Made by a program: the position numbers and the translations under genes. Positions 2,805 to 36,104 of a DNA stretch of 64,000 nt are shown one piece after another. Numbering within the stretch: position 1 is the first letter of the stretch; each line of letters starts with the position of its first letter. The DNA is from an uncultured Coriobacteriaceae bacterium (GTDB lineage: Bacteria > Actinomycetota > Coriobacteriia > Coriobacteriales > QAMH01): the NCBI GenBank assembly GCA_964435565.1, contig CAYSZR010000002.1, positions 102-64,101 of the forward strand, written 5' to 3'. Below the pieces are notes generated by a model. It had not been told where the DNA came from, ran no database searches, and saw nothing but the letters and a program-made list of their open reading frames with translations.

Positions 2805-4058
2805 TTATTTGGCGCCCTTCAGAATGGTGCGTACAACGTTCTTGCCTGCGTGCTTCGCTTCGTAGAGCGCCCGATCGACGCGAAGATAGAGCGTGTCAAG
2901 ATCATCACCGGAATCTGCTTCGGTAACTCCCAGGCTGATGGTCTGCGGGCTTGCCTCGGGATAATCGAGGTTGCTGAAGCACTTTCGTATGCGTTCCGCT
3001 ACATCGCTTGCTTCTGGATCTTGTATGCCGGGAAGAAGCAGCATGAATTCTTCGCCGCCCCAACGGCCTGCAGAGAGGCTGTTCACGCCGTACTTTTCTC
3101 CATCGAGCAGAATGTTTGCAAGGCACTGGATAATGTAATCGCCCTGCCGATGACCGTAGGTGTCATTCAAGACTTTGAAATTGTCGATGTCGAGCATGAC
3201 AAGCGAGAAAGGCGACTCTTCCAGATTGCAAAGAGCTTCTTTAATGCGCCTTTGAATTTCCGTGCGGTTATACAGGCCGGTAAGACCGTCGATCGTCGAT
3301 GCCCGGTGCAGCTTCTTTTTCAGAAGCTCTTGTTCGGTGATGTCATAGATAAGCGCGATGATGCCGCTTGCCTTGCCATGTTCGTCGAGTATGGGCTCTT
3401 TGGTTATGTCATAGAACTCTTTGATACCGTCGGTGTTGATTTCGATCGTATAGCGTGTGCCCTGGCCGGTCTCAAGTATCTTTTTGTCTGCTTGCATGGC
3501 GAGAATCGCATTGTCTTTATCTTTGCGAATCTCTATATCGGTCTTGCCGCGAATCGTCCAGTTGGGATCATCGCTATAATCAAGGTGGTGCCAGTAATGT
3601 GTCGCAAAAATATACCTGCCTTCGGAATCCTTCATGAAGATATTGGAGGGCAGCACGTGCACGAGCTCAGAGAATTCATCGAAGGTCATTGAGTCTTTAA
3701 TATGAATAGCATTTGCGATGCGGTTTTGGACGACTACTGGGCATGCGGTTGCGCCGACAAGATCGAGGATTCCATGTTGCAGGGCATCAGCGGCTTCATC
3801 TTGCGAGGGAGCATCTGAAAGTCCCAAAATCGGTATGTAATCATATCTATGGTCGCTTGTTATCGCATTGATAAAGGCATAGTTGTCTGCAGAGGCCATA
3901 CGCAGGTCGACGAGCACTGCGCTGGTGGTCATATGATGAGTGTCGAGATAAGCAAGGGCATCTTCGCAGGTCTGGACCGTTACGTACGCATACTTGCCTT
4001 GCAGCATGTCGCGAATCCAGTATTGCGTTTGCGTGACCAGGAGCGCTGTTTTATCCAT
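2805..4058 (-). CDS. Diguanylate cyclase: receiver-like domain, PAS, GGDEF
   Basis: 417 aa with an intact GGEEF active site (RWGGEEFMLLLP) and a PAS-like segment. The N-terminal CheY-like fold lacks the usual acidic pair (LLVTQTQ). No RxxD I-site lies 5 residues upstream of GGEEF. Confidence 0.85.
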   Translation of the reverse strand: MDKTALLVTQTQYWIRDMLQGKYAYVTVQTCEDALAYLDTHHMTTSAVLVDLRMASADNYAFINAITSDHRYDYIPILGLSDAPSQDEAADALQHGILDLVGATACPVVVQNRIANAIHIKDSMTFDEFSELVHVLPSNIFMKDSEGRYIFATHYWHHLDYSDDPNWTIRGKTDIEIRKDKDNAILAMQADKKILETGQGTRYTIEINTDGIKEFYDITKEPILDEHGKASGIIALIYDITEQELLKKKLHRASTIDGLTGLYNRTEIQRRIKEALCNLEESPFSLVMLDIDNFKVLNDTYGHRQGDYIIQCLANILLDGEKYGVNSLSAGRWGGEEFMLLLPGIQDPEASDVAERIRKCFSNLDYPEASPQTISLGVTEADSGDDLDTLYLRVDRALYEAKHAGKNVVRTILKGAK

Positions 4059-4208: not shown

Positions 4209-6131
4209 TTACCCCATTGCGATTTGCCAGCCGTTGAGGAATGAGGGGTAATCTTCCAGGGGCATTGGATGCGCGAAATAATAGCCCTGGATATAATCGG
4301 CGCCGCATGCGATGACCTTCGACGCTTGTTCTGCCGTCTCGACGCCTTCGACAACGACCTGATGCCCCTTGCGATGGAACATTCCTATAAGCTCGCATAC
4401 GGTCTCATAGCCATCCCGTGTTCCCTGGTCCACAAGGCTCTTGTCTATTTTTATCTTGCCAAATGGGAATTCAAAGACTGCGGCGATACTGGAAAAACCT
4501 GTGCCGAAATCGTCCATAAGAAACACGTAGCCAAGGTCGCGCAAACGCGAAAGCGAATTGATGACCCGTTCATCGCGGCTGACGAGCATGCGTTCTGTGA
4601 TTTCAAGCGATACCTGATTGCGATTGATACCGTGCAGGGCAAGCGTCTCTTCAAGCTCGTCGACGAATCGTTCATTGACGAGCTGCTGCATTGAGAGATT
4701 GATAGAGACGTTTTCGAGTTGTTCGTGGGACTTTGAGCTGAGAAATCCGCAGACGTCCTCGACCGTCTGTTTTCCAATATCTGCTATGAGCCTGCTTTCC
4801 TCTGCGATAGGAATGAACTGGCCGGGAAGTATCATCGTGCTGTTGGGGCCGGTGAGCCTGCAAAGTATTTCCCCAGAAATCAATGTGCCTGCGCGAACGT
4901 CGTATATCGGTTGCACCCATGTCCTGAATCTGCGGCTCTTCACGGCATCTTCCATGTAGCTTGTCAGCTTCTTCTTGTGATTGAGCTCCTCTGCCACAAC
5001 GGCATCGACACGCATCTCAATGGTTTCATCGTGACGCATCTTATCCTGCGCGTATTCTATGCGCTCGAGCGTTTCTTCGGGGGTCGCCCCATCGTTTCCA
5101 ACGGTATAGTCGATGAAGCTCAACGATACTTCGATCTCTTGACCGCCCACGTGAATCGCATGGGGCGCATCGGCCACGAGCGAGGAAAAGAACTGGTCGC
5201 CCTTTTCAAGAGCGCATGTAGAAAAGACGAGGGCAAACGATGTTTGGTTGATACGGTAGACGTTGTCCCGATCACATCTTTTGCATGCCCATTCGGCAAT
5301 TTTATACAATGCACGGTTTCCCCGATCAGAGCCATAGGTCGCATTGAGTGAACGCATGTGATCAAGCTTGATGACGAAGATACGGTCTGGATTGCCACGT
5401 CGCCTCCAAGCTTCAGCTTCAAAGAGGAAGTCGAGCTGATTGCCAAGGCCGGTCAGGGGGTCTGTTTCGATGCTGTGCCGTTGGATGACGAGTTGCAAGA
5501 CGAGTGCAACACACGCTGCGGTCATGCCGTTCATGATTATCTGTGGATAGAAGGCCTGAAACATCAGCAAAAGCAAGACGGCAGGTGTGCCGATGCTCAA
5601 AATGCGCTTGATGTCATTGGAAATGTCCTTGCGGTGGATGATAGCGCAGACGAAGATGAGAACTATCATTGCCGCAGCTTGCATGTACCCGATAGTCCAT
5701 AGTGAGCCGTGGTGAAACACTTCGCTCGCATCGAAATAATATACCCATGACGTGATGGGATTAATTAGGAGCAGCGTCACGGCACCCGTGCCAATCACGC
5801 GTACGGAATGTATCGCAATTGAAAGCGCGCGTGGGTCGTCGGTGCGCCTGAGCATGTTATGGAGAATATACATCGCGTAGGCTTCTATCATGCCAAAGCA
5901 GACAAGGTCATAGGCGGTTTCGGTGATGGCAACGAGAAAGGCAGAAGCTCTTGATTCCGGGGCTGTTATGAATAGGAATGTGGCATCGATGATGATTGAG
6001 AGCATATTAAGGATAACTGCCGCGAAAAAGTACTTTTGGATATCGGCATGGCGCAGGCTGCGTTTGCCGGTGCAAGCAATAACAATTGTCAAGATGACGA
6101 GGGCAAGGAACTCCGCGACAAACGAAATCAT
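4209..6131 (-). CDS. Membrane-bound c-di-GMP phosphodiesterase (multi-TM sensor, degenerate GGDEF, EAL)
   Basis: 640 aa with about 6 N-terminal TM helices. The GGDEF position reads NQTSF, so it is degenerate. EAL-domain signatures are present: EIL, LEITE, DDFGTGFSS, KIDKS, EGVE, QGYYF. Confidence 0.85.
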   Translation of the reverse strand: MISFVAEFLALVILTIVIACTGKRSLRHADIQKYFFAAVILNMLSIIIDATFLFITAPESRASAFLVAITETAYDLVCFGMIEAYAMYILHNMLRRTDDPRALSIAIHSVRVIGTGAVTLLLINPITSWVYYFDASEVFHHGSLWTIGYMQAAAMIVLIFVCAIIHRKDISNDIKRILSIGTPAVLLLLMFQAFYPQIIMNGMTAACVALVLQLVIQRHSIETDPLTGLGNQLDFLFEAEAWRRRGNPDRIFVIKLDHMRSLNATYGSDRGNRALYKIAEWACKRCDRDNVYRINQTSFALVFSTCALEKGDQFFSSLVADAPHAIHVGGQEIEVSLSFIDYTVGNDGATPEETLERIEYAQDKMRHDETIEMRVDAVVAEELNHKKKLTSYMEDAVKSRRFRTWVQPIYDVRAGTLISGEILCRLTGPNSTMILPGQFIPIAEESRLIADIGKQTVEDVCGFLSSKSHEQLENVSINLSMQQLVNERFVDELEETLALHGINRNQVSLEITERMLVSRDERVINSLSRLRDLGYVFLMDDFGTGFSSIAAVFEFPFGKIKIDKSLVDQGTRDGYETVCELIGMFHRKGHQVVVEGVETAEQASKVIACGADYIQGYYFAHPMPLEDYPSFLNGWQIAMG

Positions 6132-13153: not shown

Positions 13154-16135
13154 GTGGTGATAAGCGGGCGTAACATAGCACGCGCACATCGGGGCTTCAC
13201 GATGATGGAGCTTCTGGCTGTTGTTGCGATTCTGGCGATTGTTGCGGCCATTGCGTTTCCTGCCGGCGCCAGTTTGGCCCGCTCTCTTGATATGACACGC
13301 AGAGACGATACGGCAAAGCAGATTTATCTCTCCGCGCAGACCAGGCTTACGGCCCTGCAGTCGAGCGGTCAATTAGACAATCTTTTTACGAACATCAAGG
13401 AAACAAAAGGCCCAAATTCGATAAGCAAGCCCTCTGATTATCCCGAAGATGATTATGCGGGCCGCGCTCTATATCAAGTTGCGAAATCTGACAACGCTAC
13501 GACTCAATATCTTGTTACGTCGAACGGCGACTTAATGACTTCGACGATGTCGGGCAGCTATATTATCGAGCTCAGCCCGTCAACTGGCGAAGTATATGGC
13601 GTGTTCTATTGGGACGACGCCTCTGATGGCAGCGCGGTTACGCACAGCTATGATGAAATCATAGGCCTCGTGGGCGACCGCACTCGAAGCGCGCGCGAAA
13701 AGGCTGGAATCGGATATTACGGCGGTGGCCCTGTAAGTGCAGCCATCAATCGCGGGGGCAAGATCTCCATTGATGACACGGACATTAAGACGGTTAACAG
13801 CGAAGAGCTCTATATCAAACTCACGAACAAATCATTTGGCAAAATCGTTCAGGAAGGCAAGACCGACAAACTCACAATTAACGTTACGGTCAGCGGACCG
13901 AAGCTGGGAGTAGGAAGTTGGTCGACGGCCACGAGGACACTTTCTTTTTCGGGGGCCGATCTTGGCATGACGTCGCAAAGCGACGAAGTGGATATTATCC
14001 TCGACAGCATGATCGACGGAAAGTCCTTCTATGACATTATCGATAAGGACCGCGCTTCAGGCGAGCAGATTCAGCCAGGAGCTGATATTACATATGATGT
14101 GACGATCACGTATGATGCCGTTGATTACAAGCTCGGTGGTTCAACTGTTAATTCACTGTATGGCAGTTTGGGGGCAAGCACGGCCAATCCGGGCAGCAAT
14201 CAGATAACTGTCTATGCTTTGCGCCACCTTAACAATATTCGTACTACTAAGCTGCACGGAATCATATGGGGTTCAAATAGCTTCAGGGACATCGTTTTCC
14301 AAAACAATACGTCGGAAACGTCAGACGATTTTATTGATTTCAATGCTGCAAGCTGGGCAAATACTAGCGTCTCCATCCCTAGTCGAGTCGGGGGCGTCTC
14401 GACCGGAGCTGCACAGAATCCCCTTGCTTCTACAACAACGAAGCTCATCTCATTGGATAACCTTGCCGTCGACGGAACCGCACTCAGTTCTGGTTCGGTG
14501 GTTACGGGTAACGGTTTTCTGCTTAAAAACTTCGAGGTCACCCAGGGTATAAGCGGTGCTACAGGATTGTTCGGTTCAGTAGGGCCTACTATTACGAGCC
14601 TGTATATGACCGATCCCATTGTGAAGGGCGGGAATAATACGGGCGCGCTGGTCGGGAATTTGACGAATGGCTCCGTTTCGAATTGCGGAGTGTATCTTAC
14701 GAGCGGGGCCGATCGTGCTAATCGCACGGTTTCCGGCGGAGAAAATAGTGGCGGGCTTGTGGGTACTGTAAATGGGGGAAGCTCTGGCATCTCAAGTTCA
14801 TTTGCCGCGATTGACGTTAATGGGACAACGACGGTCGGAGGGCTTGTCGGCCTTACTTCGAATGCCATCAGGCAGAGCTATTCTTCCGGAACTGTGAAGG
14901 CGACGGATTCAGGCGCAGGAGGGCTTGCCGGTAATGTCGCGCAAGGCGTAGACGTTGCGAATTGCTATACAACCTCGAATGTGTACTGTAATAGCCAAGC
15001 TGGTGCATTTGCCGGCACTCTTGGTAGTCTTAACGATAATAATTATGCCTACGGCTATACGGTTAAGGCCGATGGGACCGTCGATTCGACGTTTGCCAAT
15101 ACCACCTATGGTTTTGCCGGCGTGTCCGGACTAACCTCTTGGACTGTATACAAGAACGCATACTACCTGCGGGATGTTGGCTATAACTCGAATGTGACGG
15201 CATCGTTGTTTAAGACCAAGTCGTTCAGTGACGTTCAGTCAGTCAAAGGGTCTGCATATGTGTCCAAACCCTATGACTCAGCGCTATCGGGCAAGGCATT
15301 CCCGTTGATCGACCCGACGGGCATTGGCAGCCACTACGGCGACTGGCCGACTGAGATTGGCGTTCAGTGGCTTAACGGGAAAAACGAGCAGGTTGAAAGC
15401 TACTCAACGCTCACAGGCGCAATTCCAGAGTTTGTTAATTCGACGAGTCATCCCGCTCCTGACTACACGGCAACAAGCACTGACGGCCGCAAATATCTTG
15501 CCTTCTGGAACGGCAGTGGGACCAGGGACGATGAAGTATCGATGGCACTTGGTATGACCAAGAATACGGTCATTACCGCAACGTATGCATCGATTGCCTA
15601 TCCAGACTTTTCAACTATGGCAAACGCGCTGGCCAGCTCATGGACTGTGACCAACGGGAGCACGTCTACAAGCCCCGTTGCTTATTTGGGCAAATCAAAC
15701 AATCAGAAACAGATCGATTCGGAAGCTCCTTGGCTTGTGGGTAATTATGCGAACGCCGCCACGTCTATGCGGTCTTATCTTATATATCAGGGTTACTATA
15801 GTTCCGACTATGCGCAGCAGATTAGAAGTAACCCGACAGATGCAGCCGCCAACCACCCGGAGTACATTCCTTATTCGTTCCGCGTGGTGAAAGCTTCGGG
15901 CTCCAAGACGGATACCAAGGAGGAAGGTCGGTACCTTGTCTTTTTGGGCGAAAAGATTACGGACGGTATGGCGTCTTGCAATGTGATCAAATTTGACGTT
16001 GGCCGCTCGAATAATGGCAAGCCTGCTTTTCAGCGAGGGACTATAGACATTGGAACAACGACGCAGGTAGGGAAGACATACTCTCTGTATCTGGAGAACA
16101 CATTCACACCAACGAGCGCCTGGTTTACTTTGTAG
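13154..16135 (+). CDS. Giant modular type IV pilin-like protein (class III signal peptide plus GLUG-repeat module)
   Basis: The N-terminus MVISGRNIARAHRG/FTMMELLAVVAILAIVAAIAFP is a prepilin cleavage/methylation motif with Glu at +5. Residues about 350-625 carry GLUG-type repeats (TGLFG, GALVG, GGLVG x2, GGLAG, GAFAG). Length is 993 aa. Confidence 0.85.
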   Translation: MVISGRNIARAHRGFTMMELLAVVAILAIVAAIAFPAGASLARSLDMTRRDDTAKQIYLSAQTRLTALQSSGQLDNLFTNIKETKGPNSISKPSDYPEDDYAGRALYQVAKSDNATTQYLVTSNGDLMTSTMSGSYIIELSPSTGEVYGVFYWDDASDGSAVTHSYDEIIGLVGDRTRSAREKAGIGYYGGGPVSAAINRGGKISIDDTDIKTVNSEELYIKLTNKSFGKIVQEGKTDKLTINVTVSGPKLGVGSWSTATRTLSFSGADLGMTSQSDEVDIILDSMIDGKSFYDIIDKDRASGEQIQPGADITYDVTITYDAVDYKLGGSTVNSLYGSLGASTANPGSNQITVYALRHLNNIRTTKLHGIIWGSNSFRDIVFQNNTSETSDDFIDFNAASWANTSVSIPSRVGGVSTGAAQNPLASTTTKLISLDNLAVDGTALSSGSVVTGNGFLLKNFEVTQGISGATGLFGSVGPTITSLYMTDPIVKGGNNTGALVGNLTNGSVSNCGVYLTSGADRANRTVSGGENSGGLVGTVNGGSSGISSSFAAIDVNGTTTVGGLVGLTSNAIRQSYSSGTVKATDSGAGGLAGNVAQGVDVANCYTTSNVYCNSQAGAFAGTLGSLNDNNYAYGYTVKADGTVDSTFANTTYGFAGVSGLTSWTVYKNAYYLRDVGYNSNVTASLFKTKSFSDVQSVKGSAYVSKPYDSALSGKAFPLIDPTGIGSHYGDWPTEIGVQWLNGKNEQVESYSTLTGAIPEFVNSTSHPAPDYTATSTDGRKYLAFWNGSGTRDDEVSMALGMTKNTVITATYASIAYPDFSTMANALASSWTVTNGSTSTSPVAYLGKSNNQKQIDSEAPWLVGNYANAATSMRSYLIYQGYYSSDYAQQIRSNPTDAAANHPEYIPYSFRVVKASGSKTDTKEEGRYLVFLGEKITDGMASCNVIKFDVGRSNNGKPAFQRGTIDIGTTTQVGKTYSLYLENTFTPTSAWFTL

Positions 16136-16229: not shown

Positions 16230-17252
16230 TTGCTGCTTATCTGCGCCATGGTCGCTGCTGTGGTGGTAAGCCTCGCCGCCTCAAACGCAAGCAGGAGCCC
16301 CCAGCACGTGAAAGAGGAGCAGGTGTATTTCACAGCAACTTCTGCCCTCAAGCTTGTTCAGGACTCTTTTTCTTCGACCGACAGCTGTTATCTTGATATG
16401 CCTACGGCTGGCACGTCCGTTTCTTCAGCGTTTACATACGGCAAGTTTTCTTCTACTAGTGACATCGGCAAATGGGCATACAAATGGACGACAACCATTT
16501 ATCAAGATTATGTTGCTGGAACGATTGGCTCGTATAGTGAGTCAAGCAGTTCCGAAGATTTTACCATCCATGCGGATAATTCTCTGATGAGTGGCAGCGA
16601 TGTGACGGTTCGTCTGACTATGAGCAAGGACTATACGATAAGCGCTTCCATTGTAAATGCTGATGAGAACTACAACTATGATTTGCAGGTTGAAATCCCC
16701 CTGTCTTCGAGCCAGTCGAAAGTGAATGTCGACTCAAGCGGCAAGCCTACGTATTCGTATGTGGTTTCTTGGGGAGCGGCTGTGAGTGGATATCCGACGA
16801 CGAAGGGCGCGCCTTATTACCAGCCCCAGGCGGCAGGTATTGCATCGGCAAATAGCCTTACTTCGGCAAGTGACCAAAATACGAAAAGCCTGCAGCAGCT
16901 ATATAAAAGTGCGAACGACAGTGCATATCCCAATATTACAGAGGAAGAAGCTGCCCTTAATTCCATTAGCGCTGGGCACGCAAGCGACTACGTATGGAAG
17001 CCGATTATTGCTACGGACGGGACGGTCATCTTAGCCGCCTGTAAAGCGAGCGGTCAGGGCGTTGGCGATGCTACGGGGACGATAATGATCTATGTCGATG
17101 GACGTTACTATAGCTGGAAAAAGCTTGTTTTTTTTGTCTATTATGATGATGTCACGACAATAGATTCTTCTGGATTTGACAAGGACCAAATAACCAATCT
17201 CTTCTTGTGGGGGCTACTTTGGAAGTGGGAGGAAGTGCAATGGAAAAACTGA
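16230..17252 (+). CDS. PilX/GspK-like pilus-associated protein (start codon uncertain)
   Basis: The canonical TTG start is at 16230. The same frame is open from 16071 and encodes ...SERGASIIIALVLLLICAMVAAVVV, a PilX_N-like anchor, upstream of any ATG/GTG/TTG. A GAGGGAGAG SD lies at 16146-16154. Confidence 0.6.
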   Translation: MLLICAMVAAVVVSLAASNASRSPQHVKEEQVYFTATSALKLVQDSFSSTDSCYLDMPTAGTSVSSAFTYGKFSSTSDIGKWAYKWTTTIYQDYVAGTIGSYSESSSSEDFTIHADNSLMSGSDVTVRLTMSKDYTISASIVNADENYNYDLQVEIPLSSSQSKVNVDSSGKPTYSYVVSWGAAVSGYPTTKGAPYYQPQAAGIASANSLTSASDQNTKSLQQLYKSANDSAYPNITEEEAALNSISAGHASDYVWKPIIATDGTVILAACKASGQGVGDATGTIMIYVDGRYYSWKKLVFFVYYDDVTTIDSSGFDKDQITNLFLWGLLWKWEEVQWKN

Positions 17253-18145: not shown

Positions 18146-19834
18146 ATGAAATACACCAGGCTCGGAGATCTTCTCGTCGATTCAGGACTCATCGACAACG
18201 ATCAGCTGAAAGACGCCCTAGCTGCTCAGAAGAAAACCAGGCAGCGTCTGGGTGAGACGCTCATTTCTGAGGGCATCATCACTGAGCGTCAGCTCATCAA
18301 TGCGCTCACCATGCAGTTGGGTATCGATTTCATCGACTTGACCACTGCCGATATTCTTCCAGAAATGACGCAGCTGGTCTCTAAGAACCTGGCAAAGAAG
18401 TATTCGGTCGTTCCCGTGAAAACCAAAGGCGACGAGCTGTATCTTGCTATGGCCGACCCGCTGAACTTCATTGCAACTGAAGAGATAAAGTCCGCTTCCA
18501 AAAAGCGCATTGTTCCCATGATCGCCACGCAATCCGCTATCGATCATGCCATCAGCGCCTTGTACGGCACCGAAGGCGCCAAGCGAGCTATTCGCGAGAT
18601 GCAGCAGGAAAACGAACGCGAGACAGCCTACACGGTTGGCGCGACTGCACAGATCGACGAAGCAGGGCAGGCGGCCCCTTCCATCCGCTTGGTCGACAGC
18701 ATCATCGAACGTGGTATTTCCGATCGCGCCAGCGATATCCACATCGAGCCGCAGGAAGGCGAAATGCTGGTACGCATGCGTGTCGACGGCATGCTGCATA
18801 ACGTGCTGACCATCCCCAAGGAATTGCAACAATCGGTAACCTCGCGCATCAAGATCATGTGCAATATGGATGTCACCGAACGTCGTGTTCCGCAGGACGG
18901 CCGCGCCATCGTCAGTGTTCGCATGAAGGAAGCAGACCTGCGCGCATCCACATTGCCCACGGTCCACGGTGAGAAGATCGTGCTTCGCATCCTTGATCGC
19001 AGCAACCAGCAGAACACAGCTGAAGAGCTGGGCTTTTATGGTACGAATCTGGAACGTTACAACAGGTTGCTCACGAATCGGCAGGGCGTTATCTTGCTGG
19101 TTGGCCCCACGGGTTCTGGTAAATCGTCCACCATGTTCACGATGATCCAGAAGCTCAATACCGAAGAGGTCAATATCGTCACGCTGGAAGACCCCGTCGA
19201 ATACAACATCGAAGGCGTCAACCAGGTGCAGGTAAACGAAAAGACCGGTACGTCGTTTGCCGGCGGCCTTCGATCCATCCTGCGTCAGGACCCCGACATC
19301 ATCGGCGTCGGCGAAATCCGCGATGCCGAAACAGCGGATATCGCCATGCGCGCTGCCGTCACGGGCCATTTGGTGGTCTCTACCGTACATACGAGCGACG
19401 CTGTATCCACGCTCGATCGTTTGGATGACATCGGCGTCGAGCCGTACATGATGGCAAGCGCTCTGAAAGGCGTCATCAGCCAGCGTTTGGTGCGCCGCAT
19501 CTGCCCGCATTGCCGCGAAGCTTATATGCCGACCCCCGAAGAGCTCGAGGGCCTGGGAATGGATCCCGCAGCCTTGGATGTGGAGTTCTACCGCGGCGCC
19601 GGTTGTTCTGAATGCTTCGGGAGTGGCTATAAGGGCCGCACCGTTGTGGCGGAAGTGCTGATGATCGACAAGGCCATGCGTCAGGCTATTCATGAGCAGC
19701 GCTCGCGCGAAGACCTGATGGTCGCCGTGCGCGCATCGGGTTTCCAGCCAATTATCCAGAATTGCCGCGAGCTGGTGCTGAATGGCATCACCACCGCGGA
19801 AGAGGCGTTCCGTACCATCTTCACGACCGACTAG
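18146..19834 (+). CDS. pilB: Type IV pilus assembly ATPase PilB (GspE family) with an MshEN-type N-terminal domain
   Basis: Walker A GPTGSGKS, Asp/His boxes, and the tetracysteine motif CPHC...CSEC. The N-terminal domain has two RLGxx(L/V/I)... motifs. Confidence 0.95.
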   Translation: MKYTRLGDLLVDSGLIDNDQLKDALAAQKKTRQRLGETLISEGIITERQLINALTMQLGIDFIDLTTADILPEMTQLVSKNLAKKYSVVPVKTKGDELYLAMADPLNFIATEEIKSASKKRIVPMIATQSAIDHAISALYGTEGAKRAIREMQQENERETAYTVGATAQIDEAGQAAPSIRLVDSIIERGISDRASDIHIEPQEGEMLVRMRVDGMLHNVLTIPKELQQSVTSRIKIMCNMDVTERRVPQDGRAIVSVRMKEADLRASTLPTVHGEKIVLRILDRSNQQNTAEELGFYGTNLERYNRLLTNRQGVILLVGPTGSGKSSTMFTMIQKLNTEEVNIVTLEDPVEYNIEGVNQVQVNEKTGTSFAGGLRSILRQDPDIIGVGEIRDAETADIAMRAAVTGHLVVSTVHTSDAVSTLDRLDDIGVEPYMMASALKGVISQRLVRRICPHCREAYMPTPEELEGLGMDPAALDVEFYRGAGCSECFGSGYKGRTVVAEVLMIDKAMRQAIHEQRSREDLMVAVRASGFQPIIQNCRELVLNGITTAEEAFRTIFTTD

Positions 19835-19861
19835 CGCATGGGCAAGAAGGGGGCAAACCAT

Positions 19862-20914
19862 ATGACAGCACTCGACAGCATCATATCCCACGCCAATGAA
19901 AGGCGAGCTTCTGATATACATATCGCCGCTGGGGTTCCCGTTCGCTTTCGTATCGACGGACGTTTAGTCGATGCAGATGATCGCGTCTTGGAAGCTGAAG
20001 ATTGCGAGCAGCTGGGCAAGATCGCGGCGGGTGACGATTTCGAGAAGATCGCCAGAATCGGTGAATTGGACATGGCAGACACCTATGCCGGCTCCATTCG
20101 TTGCCGCTTGAACCTCTATCGCAGTCAAGGCAATATCTGCATCGCCATCCGCTTGCTCTCCAACGTCATTCCCGACCTGGATACGCTTGGCTTGCCGCCC
20201 ATCATGTTGGATTTTCCCACCTATAACAAGGGTATCGTCATTGTCACGGGTGAAACGGGGTCGGGCAAATCGACCACGCTGGCATCGATATTGAACGAAG
20301 TCAATAAAACGCGTTCTGACCATATCATCACCTTGGAAGACCCCATCGAATATATCTATACGCCGCAGAAATGCAGCATCGACCAGCGTGAGATCGGCCA
20401 TGATACCCACAGCTATGCCGACGGCCTGCGCGCCATCTTGCGCGAAGACCCCGACGTCATTCTGATCGGCGAGATGCGCGACCTCGATACGATTGAAACC
20501 GCGTTGACCGCGGCCGAAACGGGCCACTTGGTCTTTGGAACCTTGCATACGCAAAGCGCCGCCGATTCCATCGATCGTTTGGTCGACGTGTTTCCCGAAG
20601 GCCGCCAGCGTCAGATTCGCCTGCAGCTTTCCATGACGCTCGTGGCCGTGGTGTCGCAGCAGCTGCTGGTGCGCCGCGAAGGCACGGGGCGTGCAGTGGC
20701 ATGCGAAGTCATGATGGTGAACCCCGCCATCCGCAACCTCATTCGCGAGGGAAAGACCCCGCAGATCGAGAACACTTTGGCAACTACGGCAGAGCTGGGC
20801 AGCATCACCATGGACAACATGCTCATTCGTATGGTTCGCAATCGCACCATTTCTCCGCAGACTGCTGTCGAGGCGGCGCACGACCCCGAATATGTGAAGC
20901 GTAACGCCCGATAG
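19862..20914 (+). CDS. pilT: Pilus retraction ATPase PilT
   Basis: About 350 aa with Walker A GETGSGKST and a PilT-type AIRNLIREGK motif. The ATG at 19862 lies about 9 nt after AAGGGGG; an alternative ATG is at 19838. Confidence 0.95.
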   Translation: MTALDSIISHANERRASDIHIAAGVPVRFRIDGRLVDADDRVLEAEDCEQLGKIAAGDDFEKIARIGELDMADTYAGSIRCRLNLYRSQGNICIAIRLLSNVIPDLDTLGLPPIMLDFPTYNKGIVIVTGETGSGKSTTLASILNEVNKTRSDHIITLEDPIEYIYTPQKCSIDQREIGHDTHSYADGLRAILREDPDVILIGEMRDLDTIETALTAAETGHLVFGTLHTQSAADSIDRLVDVFPEGRQRQIRLQLSMTLVAVVSQQLLVRREGTGRAVACEVMMVNPAIRNLIREGKTPQIENTLATTAELGSITMDNMLIRMVRNRTISPQTAVEAAHDPEYVKRNAR

Positions 20915-20941
20915 CGACGGCGCGTCAGGAAGGCACGGCAT

Positions 20942-22147
20942 ATGAAGACGTTCAATTACAAAGCCAGGACTGAAACAGGTTCCACCATCGACGGCGTTGC
21001 CGAGGCGAATACGCGCGAAGAGGCGGTATTGAACCTGAAAGACGCTGGCCTTATTGTCGAGTCCATTGCCGAATCCGGCGGCGAACATGACATCGACTTG
21101 CGCTTGGGTGGTCGCAAAGCCAAGGAAAAATCCCTGGCCATCATGTGCAATCAGTTTGCCATCATCTTGACGGCGGGCATGCCCATCGTTCGCACATTGC
21201 AGCTAGTGGCCAATCAGACGGAAGACAAGACGCTGAAAAGCATCTTGGGCGATGTGGCTGACGACGTTGCTGCAGGTTATAGTCTGGCCGATAGTTTTGC
21301 CAAGCATGGCAAGGGTTTGCCGGTCACCTTTGTGGAAACGGTGCGCGCGGGCGAGGCCTCTGGCAACCTGGACGTGGTGTTTCGGCGCCTGAGCGATTTT
21401 TACGAAAAGTCCAGCAAGACGAAATCCAAAGTGAAATCTGCGATGATCTATCCCGCTTTTGTCGTGTGCATTGCTGTTGTGGTTATCGCCATTATCATGA
21501 TTTTCGCCGTTCCTACGTTTACTTCAACGTTTGCAACAATGGGTGTGCAGCTGCCTTGGATCACCCAGTTTATGATCGATGGATCGGCCTTCCTGACACA
21601 TAACATCCTCTTCATCATTGGCATCATCATCGTGCTGGTCATTGCAGTAAAGGTGGCCAAGAAAAATGATGATTTCCGTTTGAAATGGAGCAGCATCGGT
21701 GTGCGCGTTCCCGTCATCGGCCGCATCAACCTTATGAATGCTGCCAGTCAATATTCGGGTACCATGGGCGTCATGATGGAAGCGGGCCTTTCGGTTATCA
21801 GCGCCGTGGGCGTTACCGCGCGGTCTATGAGCAACTATTATATGGGGCATGAACTGGCTGCCACGCAGACTGACCTGGAATCGGGCAAGCCGCTGGCCTC
21901 GTGTCTGGCAAAAGCCGATATCTTTCCCGAGTTGGTTACCGAAATGACCGGCGTGGGCGAACAGACGGGCTCGCTGGAACATACCTTGACCGTGCTTTCT
22001 GAATATTACGATAATGAGGTGGAGACAGCCAGTTCGCGCGCGCTGTCTATTTTAGAACCGCTCATCATTGTCATTCTGGCGGTTGTTGTGTGTGGCATTT
22101 TATTGGCGGTATATCTGCCCATGTTCAGCCTATATGGAAATATGTAA
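20942..22147 (+). CDS. pilC: Type IV pilus platform protein PilC (GspF family)
   Basis: 401 aa with two GspF repeats and 3 TM segments, typical of T2SSF. Confidence 0.95.
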   Translation: MKTFNYKARTETGSTIDGVAEANTREEAVLNLKDAGLIVESIAESGGEHDIDLRLGGRKAKEKSLAIMCNQFAIILTAGMPIVRTLQLVANQTEDKTLKSILGDVADDVAAGYSLADSFAKHGKGLPVTFVETVRAGEASGNLDVVFRRLSDFYEKSSKTKSKVKSAMIYPAFVVCIAVVVIAIIMIFAVPTFTSTFATMGVQLPWITQFMIDGSAFLTHNILFIIGIIIVLVIAVKVAKKNDDFRLKWSSIGVRVPVIGRINLMNAASQYSGTMGVMMEAGLSVISAVGVTARSMSNYYMGHELAATQTDLESGKPLASCLAKADIFPELVTEMTGVGEQTGSLEHTLTVLSEYYDNEVETASSRALSILEPLIIVILAVVVCGILLAVYLPMFSLYGNM

Positions 22148-22321: not shown

Positions 22322-22750
22322 ATGAAAGAAATGATCCAAGCTCGTAAAGAGCAGCTTCAAGAGCGCGGCGTCAAGGGTTTTACCCTGATGGAAATGCTGA
22401 TTGTCGTCGCTATCATTGCCGTGTTGGTCGCTATTGCAATTCCTATCTTTACGTCGCAGCTTAATAATTCCAAGGTGCAGGCAGACGCTGCAAATATTCG
22501 CTCTGGCTATGCCCAGGTTTCGGCAACTGTTCTGACGGCGTCACCGGCGCCCGCTACTGGTGCAACGTATGGTCTGAATACTGATGGCACTATTACTACT
22601 GGCTCAACGGGGGACTTTAAGGCTCAAGGAAAGCCAAGTGCTGCAGAATCTATTGGTGGATCATCGATTACGTGGGATGTTGGTCAAACGCCGACTTATA
22701 CTTGGGATGGCTCAAAGATAGTTATTACGATGGCTGCTGTGACTCCCTAG
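22322..22750 (+). CDS. pilA: Major type IV pilin PilA
   Basis: MKEMIQARKEQLQERGVKG/FTLMEMLIVVAIIAVLVAIAIPIF. Length is 142 aa, with a strong RBS (AAGGAGG), its own promoter and a terminator. Confidence 0.85.
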   Translation: MKEMIQARKEQLQERGVKGFTLMEMLIVVAIIAVLVAIAIPIFTSQLNNSKVQADAANIRSGYAQVSATVLTASPAPATGATYGLNTDGTITTGSTGDFKAQGKPSAAESIGGSSITWDVGQTPTYTWDGSKIVITMAAVTP

Positions 22751-22891: not shown

Positions 22892-23767
22892 ATGTTGCTC
22901 TATGCCACACCTGCCATTACCGCATACGTGCTTGTGTTGACTGCCGTTGTTGGTTTGGTCATGGGTAGCTTTCTTAACTGTTGGGCATGGCGCATCACGC
23001 ATCATGAATCCGTTATGCACGGTCGCTCGCATTGCATCACGTGCAATCACATTCTTGCCGTACGTGATCTTGTTCCCGTGTTCAGTTGGCTTTCAACCAA
23101 GGGCACCTGCCGCTATTGCGGGCAGAAAGTGTCCGCTCGCTATCCGCTGGCGGAGCTTTTTTGCGCTGTGGTGTTCGTGTCCATCGTCATGCGTTACAAC
23201 ATCAGTCTGGAAGCGGCGCAGCTGCTGTGTTTCGCATCCATCTTGCTGGTGCTCTCTCTTACAGACTTAGACGATTACATCATTCCCAATGGCTGCATTA
23301 TCGCAGCCATTATCGTGCGTGTGCTCTACATCGTGGCGTCAGGGCTGCTTGTTGGAACGGATATGCTTACGCTGGCACTCGATTCCCTGTTAGGTGGCGT
23401 GGCGGTGTTCGTTCCGTTGCTGTTAGTGGTGTTGGTCGCTGATAAGTTGCTGGGTCGCGACAGCATGGGTGGCGGCGACTTGAAGCTCTTCTTTGTGGCA
23501 GGTCTCTATTTTGGCTGGCAGCAATGCCTGTTCCTGGTTATTGTGGCCTGCGTTATCGGCATCGTGTTGGCTCTTATCGTTCCAGCTGAATCAGCGGAAA
23601 ACTTGCAAGATTCCCAGGGTGCTTCCCAGCCTGATGAAGCCGATTCCTCTTCGCTTTCCGCAAAAGCGCAGCGTCTCATTCCGTTCGGTCCCTCCATTGC
23701 CCTTGCATGTTGGATTACCTGCTTGTGCGGCGGCCCGCTTGTCTCGTGGTATTTGGGACTATTCTGA
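22892..23767 (+). CDS. pilD: Prepilin peptidase/N-methyltransferase PilD (A24 family)
   Basis: The N-terminal Zn-like motif CITC...CRYC is present, with multiple TM segments and GGGDLKLF containing the catalytic Asp. Confidence 0.9.
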   Translation: MLLYATPAITAYVLVLTAVVGLVMGSFLNCWAWRITHHESVMHGRSHCITCNHILAVRDLVPVFSWLSTKGTCRYCGQKVSARYPLAELFCAVVFVSIVMRYNISLEAAQLLCFASILLVLSLTDLDDYIIPNGCIIAAIIVRVLYIVASGLLVGTDMLTLALDSLLGGVAVFVPLLLVVLVADKLLGRDSMGGGDLKLFFVAGLYFGWQQCLFLVIVACVIGIVLALIVPAESAENLQDSQGASQPDEADSSSLSAKAQRLIPFGPSIALACWITCLCGGPLVSWYLGLF

Positions 23768-23870: not shown

Positions 23871-24878
23871 ATGTCGTCGTTTGTGGGAATTGACATCGGC
23901 AACAATAACTGCAAAATCGCAGTTCGCGAAGGTGGTTCCATTCGTTTGGTGTCACGTCGCATGCCTGAGAATATGGTGAAGTCGGGCGAAGTGACGGCAC
24001 CTGAAACCATGGCTACCTTTCTGAAAGAAGTACGCCAGACGGAAAATATTCACGATCGCGACTGCGTGCTGGTATTGGCAGAATCGCAAACGTACTTTCG
24101 CCATGTCACACTGCCGGCTATGACCGTGGGCGAGCTTGAACTGAACCTCCCATACGAATTTCGCGACTTCATTGCTGGCGACCCCAGCGAATATGTATAT
24201 GACTATTCCGTTGATGAAATGGTCAACGATGAAACGGGCAAACCGCAACGGCTCGAGCTCTACGCCGCCGCTGCTGAAAAGGCGATGGTCGATAGATATT
24301 CTGGCATGTTGCGCAAAGCAGGATTTCGGCTGAAGGCGGTTGTGCCGGCTCCTATGGCATATTCCCGCTTACTGCGTGCGCATATCGACGCAAACCCCGA
24401 CGATGAGAATAAGGACATCGTCTTGGTGGACATTGGCCATGCCGACGCAACCGTTATGCTGTATCGTGGGGCGCATTATGAAGCCATGAAGACCGTCGAT
24501 TTTGGGTGCGATGAATTCGACGACACCATTGCGGTTTTGAAGAACATCGACCCCTATACGGCAAGCAGCTACAAATATTCCAATTTCGAAGGCGTGCTCG
24601 ACTCGCCTGAATGTCGGTCCATTTGCGATCGGTTTGCGCTAGAAGTGAACAAAGTCGTCAATTTCTATAACTTTAATAATCCCGATAAGGACATCGAGCA
24701 GATGTACTTCTTAGGTGGTGGCGCGCAGATTCCGCAGTTGACGAACGTAATTGCCGAGGCGGTGTCTATCCCGGCTCAAAGTGTGGAAGCTCTGCTACCG
24801 GCAGATGTGCAAGATCTTCTGAACGGCCCCGTATGCACGCTGGCGGTTGCCGGCATGCTTGAAGGCGAGGCGATGTAG
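23871..24878 (+). CDS. pilM: Pilus assembly protein PilM (actin-like ATPase fold)
   Basis: FVGIDIGNNNCKIAV N-terminal phosphate-1-like motif. Its size and its position ahead of the PilN/PilO-like genes fit PilM. Confidence 0.85.
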   Translation: MSSFVGIDIGNNNCKIAVREGGSIRLVSRRMPENMVKSGEVTAPETMATFLKEVRQTENIHDRDCVLVLAESQTYFRHVTLPAMTVGELELNLPYEFRDFIAGDPSEYVYDYSVDEMVNDETGKPQRLELYAAAAEKAMVDRYSGMLRKAGFRLKAVVPAPMAYSRLLRAHIDANPDDENKDIVLVDIGHADATVMLYRGAHYEAMKTVDFGCDEFDDTIAVLKNIDPYTASSYKYSNFEGVLDSPECRSICDRFALEVNKVVNFYNFNNPDKDIEQMYFLGGGAQIPQLTNVIAEAVSIPAQSVEALLPADVQDLLNGPVCTLAVAGMLEGEAM

Positions 24879-24879: not shown

Positions 24880-25476
24880 ATGGCGCTGGACTGGAACAAA
24901 TCGCTCAGCTTTGGCGGTTCTTCGAAGAAGGCGGCCGAATACCCCACGAAGACCATCATCAATCTGAATACGGTTACCTCCACAGCAGTTGACCCACGCA
25001 AAGCCATCATCCTTGGCGTGATCTTGGCCGTTTTGGTGGGCTGCTTCGTCAAATTTGGCGTTATGGATTTCTATGGGCAGGTCTCTGCCAAGCAAGCCGA
25101 GCTTTCGCGCCAGCAGGCAACGCTTGCCCAGGTCGAAAGCAAGCTCGCGAATTACGATTCTATTAAGGCAGAATACGAAAGCTACGGGTCGTATCTTTCA
25201 GGCAGCAGTGCTGCGGCGGTTGATGCCATTACGGTGCTCAATCTGATAGACCAGCAGATCATGCCTGTTGCGAAGGTGACCTCGGTCACGCTGAAGGATA
25301 ATTCGCTCTCGCTTTCTTTGACGAACGCGAGCTTGAGTACCATCGGCAATCTGGTCAACACGCTGTCTGCTCAGTCCATCGTTTCCAATGTGTCCGTTTC
25401 GACCGCCGCCACCAACGCGACGGCAGCTCAGGATGTGACCGCCACCATGGTCATCACCCTGAAGCAGGCAAGCTAG
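24880..25476 (+). CDS. pilN: PilN-like bitopic pilus alignment protein
   Basis: The ATG at 24880 lies 1 nt after the pilM stop. It has a short cytoplasmic N-terminus, a single TM helix, a coiled coil and a C-terminal beta-rich domain. Confidence 0.65.
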   Translation: MALDWNKSLSFGGSSKKAAEYPTKTIINLNTVTSTAVDPRKAIILGVILAVLVGCFVKFGVMDFYGQVSAKQAELSRQQATLAQVESKLANYDSIKAEYESYGSYLSGSSAAAVDAITVLNLIDQQIMPVAKVTSVTLKDNSLSLSLTNASLSTIGNLVNTLSAQSIVSNVSVSTAATNATAAQDVTATMVITLKQAS

Positions 25477-25488: not shown

Positions 25489-26082
25489 ATGCTGACGTAT
25501 ACGTTTTCCAAACGCGAGAAAGTGATGCTGGCTGCGCTGGCCTGTATCTTGGTGTTGGTTGCCTGGTACATGCTTGTCTTTCAGAACGTGAACAACCAAG
25601 TGTCTTCGCTTAATAGCCAGATAGCAACGGTACAGGATCAAACCACGGTTGATTCGGCCAAACTCGCTCAGATGAATACGATGCAGAAGGCCATCGATGA
25701 CAGCAAGGCCAAGGGCTTGAAGGCCACGGCTCTTCCCACGTATGACAACGTGCAGGCGCTGATGGCGTCTTTGAATACGACGCTTGCTTCCACCAACAAT
25801 TACTCGCTTGCGTTCGATAATCTGGACCGTAGCGAATCGAAGCTGGTGAAGCGTGGTGTGACCATGACGTTTGGTTGCAATAGCTATGCCGATGCAAAGA
25901 CCATCATCACTGCCATCAAGCAGGGTACCTATCCATGCACGATCGACTCGGTCAGCATGACCGACAACACGGTGAAGACGACGAGCTCCTATTCGAACGC
26001 GGGCAGCGGATCGTCCAGCGCTGCGTCGAGCTCGAACTATGGCGTGTCGATGCACGTGACGTATTTCGAGAAGGCTTCGTAG
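25489..26082 (+). CDS. pilO: PilO-like bitopic pilus alignment protein
   Basis: The N-terminal TM (MLAALACILVLVAWYMLVF) is followed by a coiled coil. Gene order is pilM-pilN-pilO. Confidence 0.65.
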   Translation: MLTYTFSKREKVMLAALACILVLVAWYMLVFQNVNNQVSSLNSQIATVQDQTTVDSAKLAQMNTMQKAIDDSKAKGLKATALPTYDNVQALMASLNTTLASTNNYSLAFDNLDRSESKLVKRGVTMTFGCNSYADAKTIITAIKQGTYPCTIDSVSMTDNTVKTTSSYSNAGSGSSSAASSSNYGVSMHVTYFEKAS

Positions 26083-26167
26083 CTTTCCGTTGCAACCTGT
26101 CCGTTAACGCAAAGAAGCGTTTTGTCTTTTACCGAATACCTTTCGCCCGTCGGGCAGAGGTGGATAA

Positions 26168-27601
26168 ATGCGGTACAATCGTTTCGAGAGCTGGGCCTTG
26201 AGTGGAACAGGAACGCAGCATATGGATAAACATGAAGTTCCCACTGTCATAGGCACAATCGACCATCTGTCGCACCCGGGCTTTTCTTTCGCCGTAAGCG
26301 ACGCCGATGAAGCGTGCTCGTCAAACGATGCCGCCATCGGCCTTTTCAACGCTCTTGCAGAGCAGGTTAACCTTTTCCCCGGCGGGCTTGTCCGCTATGA
26401 CGCAGATGAGAAAAGTGGCTATCACGTGACCATGGTGAGCCAGTCTTTTCTTGATATGCTCGGGTTCGAGTCGGTGGATGACTTCGCCCGGAAATTCGAT
26501 TGCAGATATGATCGAATCGTCTTTGGGGATGATCGTGAGCGTACCTTAGAGCTTATACGGTCGGAAAACCCGATCAGGACGACTGACTTCAATCTATATC
26601 GCCTTATCAAGGCAGACGGCAGCCCGCTGTGGGTTTATGGCCGGGGTGGGGTCGTTGACGATGGCACTGGCCATAAGTCGGTCTATGTCATCTTGCTCGA
26701 TGCGCAGGAATTTATGGAAGAACAGGCGGTCTTGCGTTGGCAGAAAACCAAGCTCGATCTGCTCGAGGGCATTCCTGGAATCGTCTCGTTTGACTATGAC
26801 CCCGCAACTGATGTTTTTACCGCTTCGTTTTCAAATCGCGAAGGCGAGACGGTGCGCCATAGCTACGAGCATTTCGTCGAGGATGCGGGCGAAAAAGAAT
26901 GGATCGCCAAGGAAAGCCTGGGCGAATTCGCAAATGTGAGCAGCTTGGTTTTGGGCGAAAGCGCCATGAGCGAATTCGAAGTGCGAATCAACGTCGGTGA
27001 TATGGGCTTTGACTGGTACCAGGCAGCCTGCAAGAGCGTCACTGACAACAATGACAAGGTGTACCGCGTCGTTGGACGCGCGATTAACATCGAGCATTAC
27101 AAGCAGCAGGTCAGCAAATGGCAAGAACGCGCCCGGCACGATTCGCTTACGGGCGTTGCGAACCACGGTTGGCTTATCGAGAGCATGCGCAGGGAACTTA
27201 CGCGCAACGGTTCTGGCACGCTGATCATGATAGACATCGATGATTTCAAGGGCGTGAACGACGCATGCGGTCATCTTAAAGGCGACGACGTACTGCGCAG
27301 CGTGGCTATGGCGCTTCTGGATGCGTTTCGTGCGACAGACATCATTGGGCGCTATGGTGGCGATGAGTTCGCGGTTTTCCTTCCGTGCGTGACGGACAGA
27401 GAACTCGCCAGAAGGCGCGCGAAAGACATCATGAAGAGGATCAGCCTGCTGGGCGATGACTTTGGGATCGATATCACTGCGAGCGTCGGCGTAAAAATCG
27501 TCGATGGCGGCGATTGCACTCCCGAGCAATTCATCAAGGAAGCTGATACTGCGCTCTATAAATCCAAGCGCAATGGCAAAGATAGGTGCACGTTCGCCTA
27601 G
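26168..27601 (+). CDS. Diguanylate cyclase (PAS-like domains plus GGDEF with RxxD I-site)
   Basis: RATDIIGRYGGDEFAVFLP shows an intact GGDEF with RxxD exactly 5 residues upstream. The ATG at 26168 follows AGAGGTGG. It lies 85 nt after pilO on the same strand. Confidence 0.85.
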   Translation: MRYNRFESWALSGTGTQHMDKHEVPTVIGTIDHLSHPGFSFAVSDADEACSSNDAAIGLFNALAEQVNLFPGGLVRYDADEKSGYHVTMVSQSFLDMLGFESVDDFARKFDCRYDRIVFGDDRERTLELIRSENPIRTTDFNLYRLIKADGSPLWVYGRGGVVDDGTGHKSVYVILLDAQEFMEEQAVLRWQKTKLDLLEGIPGIVSFDYDPATDVFTASFSNREGETVRHSYEHFVEDAGEKEWIAKESLGEFANVSSLVLGESAMSEFEVRINVGDMGFDWYQAACKSVTDNNDKVYRVVGRAINIEHYKQQVSKWQERARHDSLTGVANHGWLIESMRRELTRNGSGTLIMIDIDDFKGVNDACGHLKGDDVLRSVAMALLDAFRATDIIGRYGGDEFAVFLPCVTDRELARRRAKDIMKRISLLGDDFGIDITASVGVKIVDGGDCTPEQFIKEADTALYKSKRNGKDRCTFA

Positions 27602-27704: not shown

Positions 27705-28556
27705 TTGGAATTCTTATCGAGCCTTATCGAGCCGCTTACCACGGTAAACGGTTGGATTGAGGTCGTTATCCTGATGTTCCTCGAGCTTGCGCTCGGCATC
27801 GACAATCTTGTATTCATCGCAATCACCGCAGACCGTCTGCCTGCAGATAAGCAGCATATCGGCCGCAGGCTTGGATTGGCAGCGGCCATGATCATGCGCT
27901 GCATCCTGCTGTGCTGCGTGGTCTGGATCATGTCCATCAACGTTGTCGTGTTCAGCCTGCCCTTTGGCATCGAGGGCGGACACACCGATCTGAACGTGCG
28001 CGACATGGTGTTTCTGTTGGGTGGCATCTACCTTGTATACAAGGGCATCACCGAACTCTACGAAGTCTTCGAGGCTGCTGGTTCCGCACCTGCAAAAGAG
28101 GGTATCGCTCCGCCGCCACGCCGCACCATCGGGCTTGCTCAGGCGGTGTCCACCATCATGGTCATGGATATCGTGTTCTCGCTCGATTCGGTAATCACCG
28201 CCGCGGGGCTTTCGGGTCAGATCCTTATCATGGTCATTGCCGTGATAGGGGCGGTTACGCTCATGATCATCTTCGCCGATCCTATCAGCGACTTCATCAA
28301 CCGCAATTTCGAGATCAAGATCGTGGCGCTCTCGTTCATCATTCTTGTTGGCTTCGAGCTTCTGCTCGAAGCGTTTCACATCGACTATATCGCCGGTGCG
28401 CCCATGGCGACGCTGCTTTACGGGATGATGCTGTTTGGCTTCATCGTCTCGCTGCTCACGATGTTGCAGCGACATATTCGTGAAAGGGCGGTCAAGGCTC
28501 TGGAAAGCGCATCTGCAGAAGACGAAAAGGCGGGAAAGGATACGTCCGTTGAGTAG
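27705..28556 (+). CDS. TerC-family integral membrane protein
   Basis: LELALGIDNLVFIAI and a second IVFSLDSVITA repeat are typical of TerC. The TTG start follows GGAGG. Confidence 0.85.
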   Translation: MEFLSSLIEPLTTVNGWIEVVILMFLELALGIDNLVFIAITADRLPADKQHIGRRLGLAAAMIMRCILLCCVVWIMSINVVVFSLPFGIEGGHTDLNVRDMVFLLGGIYLVYKGITELYEVFEAAGSAPAKEGIAPPPRRTIGLAQAVSTIMVMDIVFSLDSVITAAGLSGQILIMVIAVIGAVTLMIIFADPISDFINRNFEIKIVALSFIILVGFELLLEAFHIDYIAGAPMATLLYGMMLFGFIVSLLTMLQRHIRERAVKALESASAEDEKAGKDTSVE

Positions 28557-29697: not shown

Positions 29698-29716
29698 ACC
29701 GTCCGCACCCAAAGCC

Positions 29717-33770: not shown

Positions 33771-33785
33771 GAGATTGGAACGGAA

Positions 33786-34826: not shown

Positions 34827-34829
34827 ATC

Positions 34830-36050: not shown

Positions 36051-36104
36051 CAAGACGGCTGCAGAAGGCCGCTTCCCAAAAGCGATTCGATGGTGAGGAA
36101 AGAC

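Follow-up and report, generated by a model that had tools for sequence, protein, structure and literature searches.

A type IV pilus extension ATPase from a Coriobacteriales contig with a canonical N-terminal MshEN domain predicted to bind c-di-GMP

A 64,000-nucleotide stretch of DNA from an uncultured Coriobacteriaceae bacterium (contig CAYSZR010000002.1; the whole stretch is here called the window) encodes the type IV pilus extension ATPase PilB, which begins with two perfect tandem copies of the motif that defines the MshEN domain, a receptor for cyclic di-GMP (c-di-GMP). The assignment of the PilB N-terminus as a bona fide MshEN domain is supported by sequence and by predicted fold, and it is very probable that the domain binds c-di-GMP. 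With less assurance, and by analogy with characterised relatives, we also favour a role for the bound ligand in promoting pilus assembly.

MshEN was defined in Vibrio cholerae MshE through a pair of 24-residue motifs of the form RLGxx(L/V/I)(L/V/I)xxG(L/V/I)(L/V/I)xxxxLxxxLxxQ, with a 5-residue spacer between them (Wang et al. 2016, PMC5013675); the consensus and spacer length quoted in a first-pass annotation of this DNA agree with that definition. The annotation had placed the motif at residues 5-28 and 34-57 of PilB, and a search with the regular expression RLG..[LVI][LVI]..G[LVI][LVI]....L...L..Q found it there at all defined positions. The span given for the pair, nucleotides 18158-18316, and the 5-residue KKTRQ spacer were exact as well. 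The translation starts MKYT-RLGDLLVDSGLIDNDQLKDALAAQ-KKTRQ-RLGETLISEGIITERQLINALTMQ, the two motifs and the spacer making up a unit of 53 residues. These are the only two matches in PilB, and no further match turned up in any of the six reading frames of the 64-kb window, nor did relaxing the pattern yield one. Could such a pair have arisen by chance? In a six-frame translation with the amino-acid composition of the window, the expected counts are 3e-6 for a single motif and 7e-17 for the tandem, so chance does not account for the pair.

Family models place the rest of the protein around this unit. The dedicated 53-position NCBIfam model NF053729 aligns PilB residues 5-57 to its positions 1-53 of 53, scoring 69.8 bits against a cut-off of 38. 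The Pfam model PF05157 (MshEN/T2SSE_N), which spans the C-terminal subdomain only and leaves the motif region outside, matches residues 58-145 (E 9.5e-21, 74 bits against a cut-off of 23.1), and the T2SSE ATPase domain PF00437 occupies residues 175-556 (E 7e-126). The translation contains the core ATPase motifs, namely Walker A (GPTGSGKS), the Asp box (EDPVE), Walker B (DPDIIGVGEIRD) and the His box (TGHLVVSTVHT), together with a CPHC...CSEC zinc (tetracysteine) motif. The top whole-protein model in NCBIfam is TIGR02538, type IV-A PilB, at 564.1 bits, with GspE close behind at 548.6. The identification of a PilB-type extension ATPase within a type IV pilus cluster is supported.

PilB residues 4-65 align to residues 8-69 of V. 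cholerae MshE without a gap and with 34 of 62 residues identical (55%). Each ligand-contact or bundle residue described by Wang et al. is therefore matched by an identical or conservative residue, numbered 4 higher in MshE than in PilB. Among solved structures, residues 1-157 match Thermus PilF, Myxococcus xanthus PilB, Geobacter PilB and V. cholerae MshEN (5HTL, E 1.4e-20). An AlphaFold2 model of residues 1-160 has a mean predicted local distance difference test score of 86.6 and places four helices in residues 6-58. The PDB entry closest to this model in Foldseek is again 5HTL, the complex of MshE with c-di-GMP (E 2.8e-12, template modelling scores 0.74/0.84, root mean square deviation 2.2 A over 138 columns), followed by c-di-GMP-bound Thermus PilF domains. 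The predicted fold has the four-helix-bundle N-subdomain and the alpha/beta C-subdomain of 5HTL.

An identical PilB protein was found only on metagenome contigs, the best species representative being 82% identical. Metagenome-assembled genomes of Eggerthellaceae, of Atopobiaceae and related to Denitrobacterium are among the relatives, and the TyrRS encoded in the window has a close relative that is labelled Coriobacteriales. Conservation was assessed over the closest 120 PilB homologs (66-100% identity), whose source labels, where given, are Eggerthellaceae, Coriobacteriaceae, Atopobiaceae or Coriobacteriales. At the twelve ligand-contact positions the residue of the window protein was matched in 98.5%, at core and turn positions in 78%, and at the remaining positions of residues 5-57 in 52%. 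In motif 1, R5, L6, G7, L21, L25 and Q28 are 99-100% conserved; in motif 2, R34, L35, G36, L54 and Q57 are invariant and L50 is L or V. Also invariant is D104, the counterpart of MshE D108, a residue that touches the guanine amino group. Of the 120, 65 retain the strict tandem pattern; the others show conservative differences, such as Thr or Ala following the turn glycine, or Val in place of L50. In a wider comparison, with the 150 best cluster representatives at 50% identity, 7 carried the strict pattern. A perfect motif is not needed for binding, since many known binders are imperfect.

Might the motif be kept in this lineage for the fold, or for docking PilM, PilC or another partner, with no binding of c-di-GMP at all? 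The N-terminal domains of PilB and GspE proteins also dock partners, as in the Xanthomonas citri PilB-PilZ and the GspE-GspL pairs, which are both among the fold matches, and the central hydrophobic residues of the motif form the core of the helix bundle (PMC5013675). Nevertheless, we judge this explanation improbable. XpsE and X. citri PilB adopt the fold although they lack the motif; the motif residues are thus not needed for it. None of the eight disabling substitutions of the XpsE type (G11V, I19R, L29R, R38G, G40L, L54H, L58C and Q61V) is present in the window protein, in which the counterparts of the altered positions are all kept (G7, L15, L25, R34, G36, L50, L54 and Q57). The strictest conservation falls on the R, L, G, L, L, Q contact series and not only on the core positions. 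Finally, all motif-bearing constructs tested by Wang et al. bound c-di-GMP, with dissociation constants (Kd) of 14 nM to 0.5 uM (PMC5013675), and enzymes of c-di-GMP metabolism are encoded in the window.

Binding would then be expected to follow the MshE scheme. The N-terminal 145 residues of PilB would form a canonical MshEN domain in which residues 5-57 make a four-helix bundle of two 24-residue half-sites, each clamping one guanine of a single c-di-GMP, so that one ligand would be held per N-terminal domain. On the MshE model R5 and R34 would stack on the bases, the backbone amides at G7 and G36 would bond to their Hoogsteen edges, and the ribose and phosphate would be bonded by Q28 and Q57. 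L6 would form a leucine triangle with L50 and L54, and L35 a second one with L21 and L25. It is far less probable, indeed hardly to be expected, that a different cyclic dinucleotide, for example 3'3'-cyclic GMP-AMP (cGAMP), serves as the physiological ligand. MshEN_N does bind cGAMP measurably, with a Kd of 3.3e-4 M, but this affinity is about 600-fold below that for c-di-GMP. In addition, both PilB half-sites are of the guanine type with identical contact residues, and the window carries GGDEF and EAL genes, whereas no cGAMP synthase family appeared in Pfam scans of the open reading frames (ORFs) tested.

The affinity of PilB for c-di-GMP is most likely sub-micromolar. A change of the leading arginine to lysine or leucine marks the members of very high affinity (Neissner et al., PMC11731258). 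The Arg-Arg form of the motif in PilB thus points to a Kd like that of MshE, about 0.5 uM, which lies in the physiological range. The same arginines bear on the R5A/R34A variant proposed in the first-pass annotation as a control. It is a poorly chosen, weak negative control, because a change at MshE Arg9 altered affinity less than 5-fold and because the arginine is dispensable in Thermus PilF, where replacement by lysine or leucine raised affinity (PMC11731258). Binding is abolished in MshE by the substitutions G11L, G11I and G40I, at the positions equivalent to PilB G7 and G36, and PilB Q28 and Q57 correspond to Q190 and Q218 of PilF.

That the window encodes three c-di-GMP enzymes, as had been proposed, is borne out by Pfam and by motifs: there are two cyclases with intact GG(D/E)EF and one EAL protein (Table 1). 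The EAL protein keeps the catalytic motifs EIL, DDFGTG, KID and EGVE. With this complement of genes the host is predicted both to make and to degrade c-di-GMP. No PilZ domain and no second MshEN protein were found in Pfam scans of the window ORFs tested, nor did the six-frame motif search return a second MshEN protein. Two other kinds of control element were looked for and rejected. For a c-di-GMP riboswitch before the pilin gene, as at pilA1 of Clostridioides difficile, an Rfam scan at gathering thresholds returned only three tRNAs in the window. No full match in the window was found for a promoter of the WhiG/RsiG type (TAAA...GCCGATAA) like that of the pilus cluster in Rubrobacter; single-mismatch matches to the -10 element on the plus strand within the cluster lie inside ORFs, with none upstream of pil genes.

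How would c-di-GMP act on the pilus? Occupancy by the ligand most likely favours an assembly-competent PilB hexamer. High cellular c-di-GMP would then raise extension against PilT-driven retraction, its level depending on GGDEF and EAL enzymes like those three encoded in the window. In V. cholerae MshE, c-di-GMP is required for extension, the G11I allele is without pili, and c-di-GMP levels alter the dynamics of extension and retraction. By analogy we think it probable that c-di-GMP occupancy promotes pilus assembly here too, an expectation that covers both the sign and the size of any effect on piliation. The first-pass annotation had gone further and predicted from the MshEN-bearing PilB that pilus extension is directly gated by c-di-GMP. 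The PilB-type ATPase and the MshEN domain stand; gating of extension we only infer, because outputs differ among the characterised MshEN ATPases.

Several points weigh against a c-di-GMP switch of extension. PilB falls short of the equivalog cut-off of TIGR02538 (675.65 bits). It is therefore a PilB-type ATPase by context and not an equivalog of the proteobacterial type IVa pilus PilB, and function can be transferred from the proteobacterial proteins by analogy only. A weak terminator-like hairpin lies at 26106-26121, between pilO and the PAS-GGDEF cyclase gene, which starts 85-139 bases past pilO on the same strand. The gap was also searched for a structured RNA or strong terminator, and this weak hairpin was all that was found, the fold being no better than shuffles (z = -0.8). 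Nor is the cyclase conserved next to the pilus cluster in 12 related Coriobacteriia loci. In tblastn with the window cyclase, the position after pilO was occupied only on contigs of the same organism, although unrelated GGDEF genes occur within 10 kb, on the opposite strand, in two of the 12. A conserved linkage of cyclase and pilus cluster is thus rejected; the cyclase is adjacent to the pilus genes in the window, as previously remarked, and this adjacency is weak evidence because it is not conserved in related genomes. Among relatives, Clostridium perfringens PilB2 binds c-di-GMP, but the ligand left its rate of ATP hydrolysis in vitro unchanged (Hendrick et al. 2017, summarised in PMC11656802). 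A search of the literature returned no work on binding or phenotype for this protein or any Coriobacteriia relative, and none on Coriobacteriia pili.

The behaviour of two further relatives, which also speaks against the switch, leads to a different explanation, in which c-di-GMP is bound but does not switch extension. It would serve instead as a structural cofactor or stabiliser, or act on another output such as exopolysaccharide, adhesion or DNA uptake, and piliation would be largely insensitive to it. In M. xanthus, MshEN mutants mainly had lowered PilB levels, with protein stability and motility affected, and the ligand raised the thermal stability of the domain. For Thermus PilF a role of the ligand as a permanently bound structural cofactor has been suggested; twitching and adhesion were affected, while DNA uptake and transformation were not (PMC11731258). 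The motif evidence for binding fits this explanation equally well. We nevertheless regard it as rather unlikely, since in the prototype, MshE, the G11I change abolishes pili and the dynamics follow c-di-GMP levels, and since the Kd predicted from the Arg-Arg motif, near the physiological 0.5 uM, would suit a sensor better than a permanently bound cofactor. Promotion of assembly by c-di-GMP is thus the reading that we retain.

The genes around pilB form a complete monoderm type IV pilus cluster, pilT included (Table 1). The order is the 993-amino-acid (aa) pilin-like gene, two small ORFs, a minor pilin gene, pilB, pilT, pilC, pilA, pilD, pilM, pilN-like and pilO-like, and the core of the cluster is kept in at least 10 related Coriobacteriia genomes. 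The possibility that it is a horizontally acquired island was rejected, its GC content of 49-55% lying inside the range of the window.

Table 1. Positions of the PilB domain features, pilus genes and c-di-GMP enzymes in the window
Feature	Position	Strand	Basis
pilB, 562-aa type IV pilus extension ATPase	18146..19834	+	Pfam, NCBIfam, motifs in translation
MshEN motif 1, residues 5-28 (RLGDLLVDSGLIDNDQLKDALAAQ)	18158..18229	+	Exact regular-expression match; ungapped against MshE residues 9-32
Spacer KKTRQ, residues 29-33, 5 residues	18230..18244	+	Translation and motif search
MshEN motif 2, residues 34-57 (RLGETLISEGIITERQLINALTMQ)	18245..18316	+	Exact regular-expression match; aligns to MshE 38-61
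MshEN C-terminal subdomain, residues 58-145, including D104	18317..18580	+	Pfam PF05157
993-aa pilin-like protein, prepilin N-terminus	13154-16135	+	N_methyl
314-340-aa ORF, faint PilJ_C match	16230-17252	+	Gene calls on identical contigs
98-aa ORF	to 17536	+	Gene calls on identical contigs
Minor pilin, 187-192 aa	17540-18118	+	N_methyl; gene calls on identical contigs
pilT, retraction ATPase, 4 bases after pilB stop	19838..20914	+	TIGR01420 pilT_fam 425 bits against cut-off 319; Pfam T2SSE
pilC, platform protein	20942..22147	+	Pfam T2SSF, two copies, E 1.5e-57
pilA, 142-aa prepilin, likely major pilin	22322..22750	+	N_methyl motif; TIGR02532
pilD, prepilin peptidase	22892..23767	+	Pfam A24_N_bact and Peptidase_A24
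pilM, alignment complex	23871-24878	+	PilM_2 E 1.9e-19
pilN-like, alignment complex	about 24880-25476	+	With pilO-like: T2SSM, weak; order kept in related Coriobacteriia loci
pilO-like, alignment complex	25489-26082	+	With pilN-like: T2SSM, weak; order kept in related Coriobacteriia loci
PAS-GGDEF diguanylate cyclase, intact GGDEF, RxxD I-site (RATD-x5-GGDEF)	26168..27601	+	Pfam GGDEF E 6e-35; motifs
Second diguanylate cyclase: receiver-like, PAS, GGDEF (GGEEF, without I-site)	2805..4058	-	Pfam GGDEF E 1e-36, PAS_4
Membrane-anchored degenerate GGDEF and EAL, likely c-di-GMP phosphodiesterase	4209..6131	-	EAL E 2.6e-57; GGDEF weak, 2e-9

The gene order of such clusters varies in Coriobacteriia. 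In one related locus (L013, 14702-17811) the pilD-pilM-pilN-pilO block is inverted relative to pilB-pilT-pilC, and in another (L015, 14917-18042) pilD comes after pilO. The cluster is headed by a giant pilin-like protein of 993 aa that has the methylation motif and no other recognisable domain and is possibly a tip adhesin; its relatives in related loci are weak only (23-34% identity). Directly upstream of the cluster is a gene for a 621-aa protein with phage-tail-lysozyme and NlpC/P60 domains (11099-12964, plus strand). It has the same position on the identical metagenome contigs and no match near pilB in related Coriobacteriia loci, and it could be a dedicated peptidoglycan hydrolase for passage of the pilus through the thick monoderm wall.

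Elsewhere in the window, the minus strand at 49904-55045 encodes a surface protein of 1713 aa that combines a thioester domain with a SpaA-type fold and eight T-Q ester-bond domains; it is a Gram-positive adhesin of the covalent-adhesion type and a second adhesion system in the window. Long ORFs of 374-567 aa on the minus strand (18218-19921, 19964-21088, 28492-29724, 35877-37157 and 43188-44534) lie opposite pilB, pilT and a number of housekeeping genes. Probably these are shadow ORFs that result from codon bias, because the plus-strand genes have strong family matches. An arginine biosynthesis cluster of argC, argJ, argB, argD, argF, argG and argH lies at 33747-40953 and 43101-44528 on the plus strand, interrupted by a sodium:solute symporter gene on the opposite strand, and molybdenum cofactor genes are present at 55350-57992.

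Does the PilB domain add to what is known? A search with residues 1-150 returned 21,706 cluster representatives (50% identity) at E <= 0.001 and, at the stricter limit of E <= 1e-10, 7,096; more than 10,000 proteins had already been placed in the MshEN family (Wang et al. 2016, PMC5013675). Among the best representatives, many (P0121, P0124, P0138 and others) are 1000-1300 aa long and carry 4-6 MshEN-like domains in tandem, compared with three in Thermus PilF, and most copies in these multi-MshEN proteins fail the strict motif. In Eggerthella lenta, of the same class as the window host, MshEN is listed as the sole protein receptor known for c-di-GMP (Supplementary Table 5, PMC5013675), the counts being 9 GGDEF, 10 GGDEF+EAL, 2 HD-GYP, 0 PilZ and 2 MshEN. 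Within Actinobacteria, c-di-GMP, cyclase genes and type IV pilus clusters have already been linked transcriptionally in Rubrobacter (PMC8325347). Because the family is so large, E. lenta is listed and the Rubrobacter link is described, the motif in PilB is a correct annotation of an uncharacterised member of a well-described family and will not surprise a specialist. The understanding of the domain itself is unchanged: its motif, structure and wide distribution have been published since 2016, and an NCBIfam model already recognises residues 5-57.

If confirmed, control of extension by c-di-GMP in this PilB would carry the MshE paradigm, the direct action of c-di-GMP on the extension motor, over to monoderm Actinomycetota from gut and rumen, and would offer an output for many orphan GGDEF and EAL enzymes of Coriobacteriia. 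A bolder suggestion, which we make tentatively and consider unlikely on present evidence, is that the MshEN domain of PilB is the principal c-di-GMP protein receptor in Coriobacteriales, with the pilO-adjacent PAS-GGDEF protein supplying a local pool that switches extension on in response to a cue sensed by PAS. It is prompted by the absence of PilZ from the scanned ORFs and of a c-di-GMP riboswitch from the window, and by the E. lenta listing. Were it true, post-translational control of type IV pili by c-di-GMP would be seen for the first time in Actinomycetota, and second-messenger signalling would be tied to adhesion in gut and rumen commensals.

Of the known systems, V. cholerae MshE (5HTL, PMC5013675) is like the window PilB in its two 24-residue motifs and 5-residue spacer, in its sequence (55% over 62 residues) and in the two-subdomain fold that is predicted here. 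In both proteins the domain stands at the N-terminus of an extension ATPase that works against PilT. The hosts differ, MshE coming from a gammaproteobacterium and the window from a monoderm actinobacterium of the Coriobacteriales. Unlike the msh locus, the window has a pilB-pilT-pilC-pilA-pilD-pilMNO cluster without a secretin, and binding in it is predicted. Rubrobacter (PMC8325347) belongs to the same phylum as the window host; a diguanylate cyclase or phosphodiesterase gene is in or linked to its pilus cluster, and c-di-GMP controls its pili. That control is transcriptional, through the sigma/anti-sigma pair of the RsiG-WhiG switch, and PilB and MshEN are not mentioned in PMC8325347.

The nearest functional analogue with a monoderm envelope is C. 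perfringens PilB2, a Gram-positive extension ATPase whose N-terminal motif is, by the description in PMC11656802, nearly identical to MshEN; its phylum, Firmicutes, is not that of the window host. Thermus PilF GSPII-B and GSPII-C (8PDK and others, PMC11731258), the next-best structural matches, share the domain family and the mode of ligand binding. PilF has three tandem domains, and its GSPII-B motifs start with Lys and Leu and bind about 83-fold more tightly than MshEN (PMC11731258), whereas the window PilB has a single domain with Arg in both motifs, from which an affinity like that of MshE is predicted. The PilB proteins of M. xanthus and Geobacter (3JC8, 5TSG) have the same architecture, at about 560-590 aa, and homologous N-terminal domains (E about 1e-21), and that of M. 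xanthus binds c-di-GMP. Their motifs are off the consensus: Asn takes the place of the turn glycine in motif 1, motif 2 has RIG in M. xanthus, and the spacer in Geobacter is 7 residues long. The window PilB is nearer to the MshE consensus than either.

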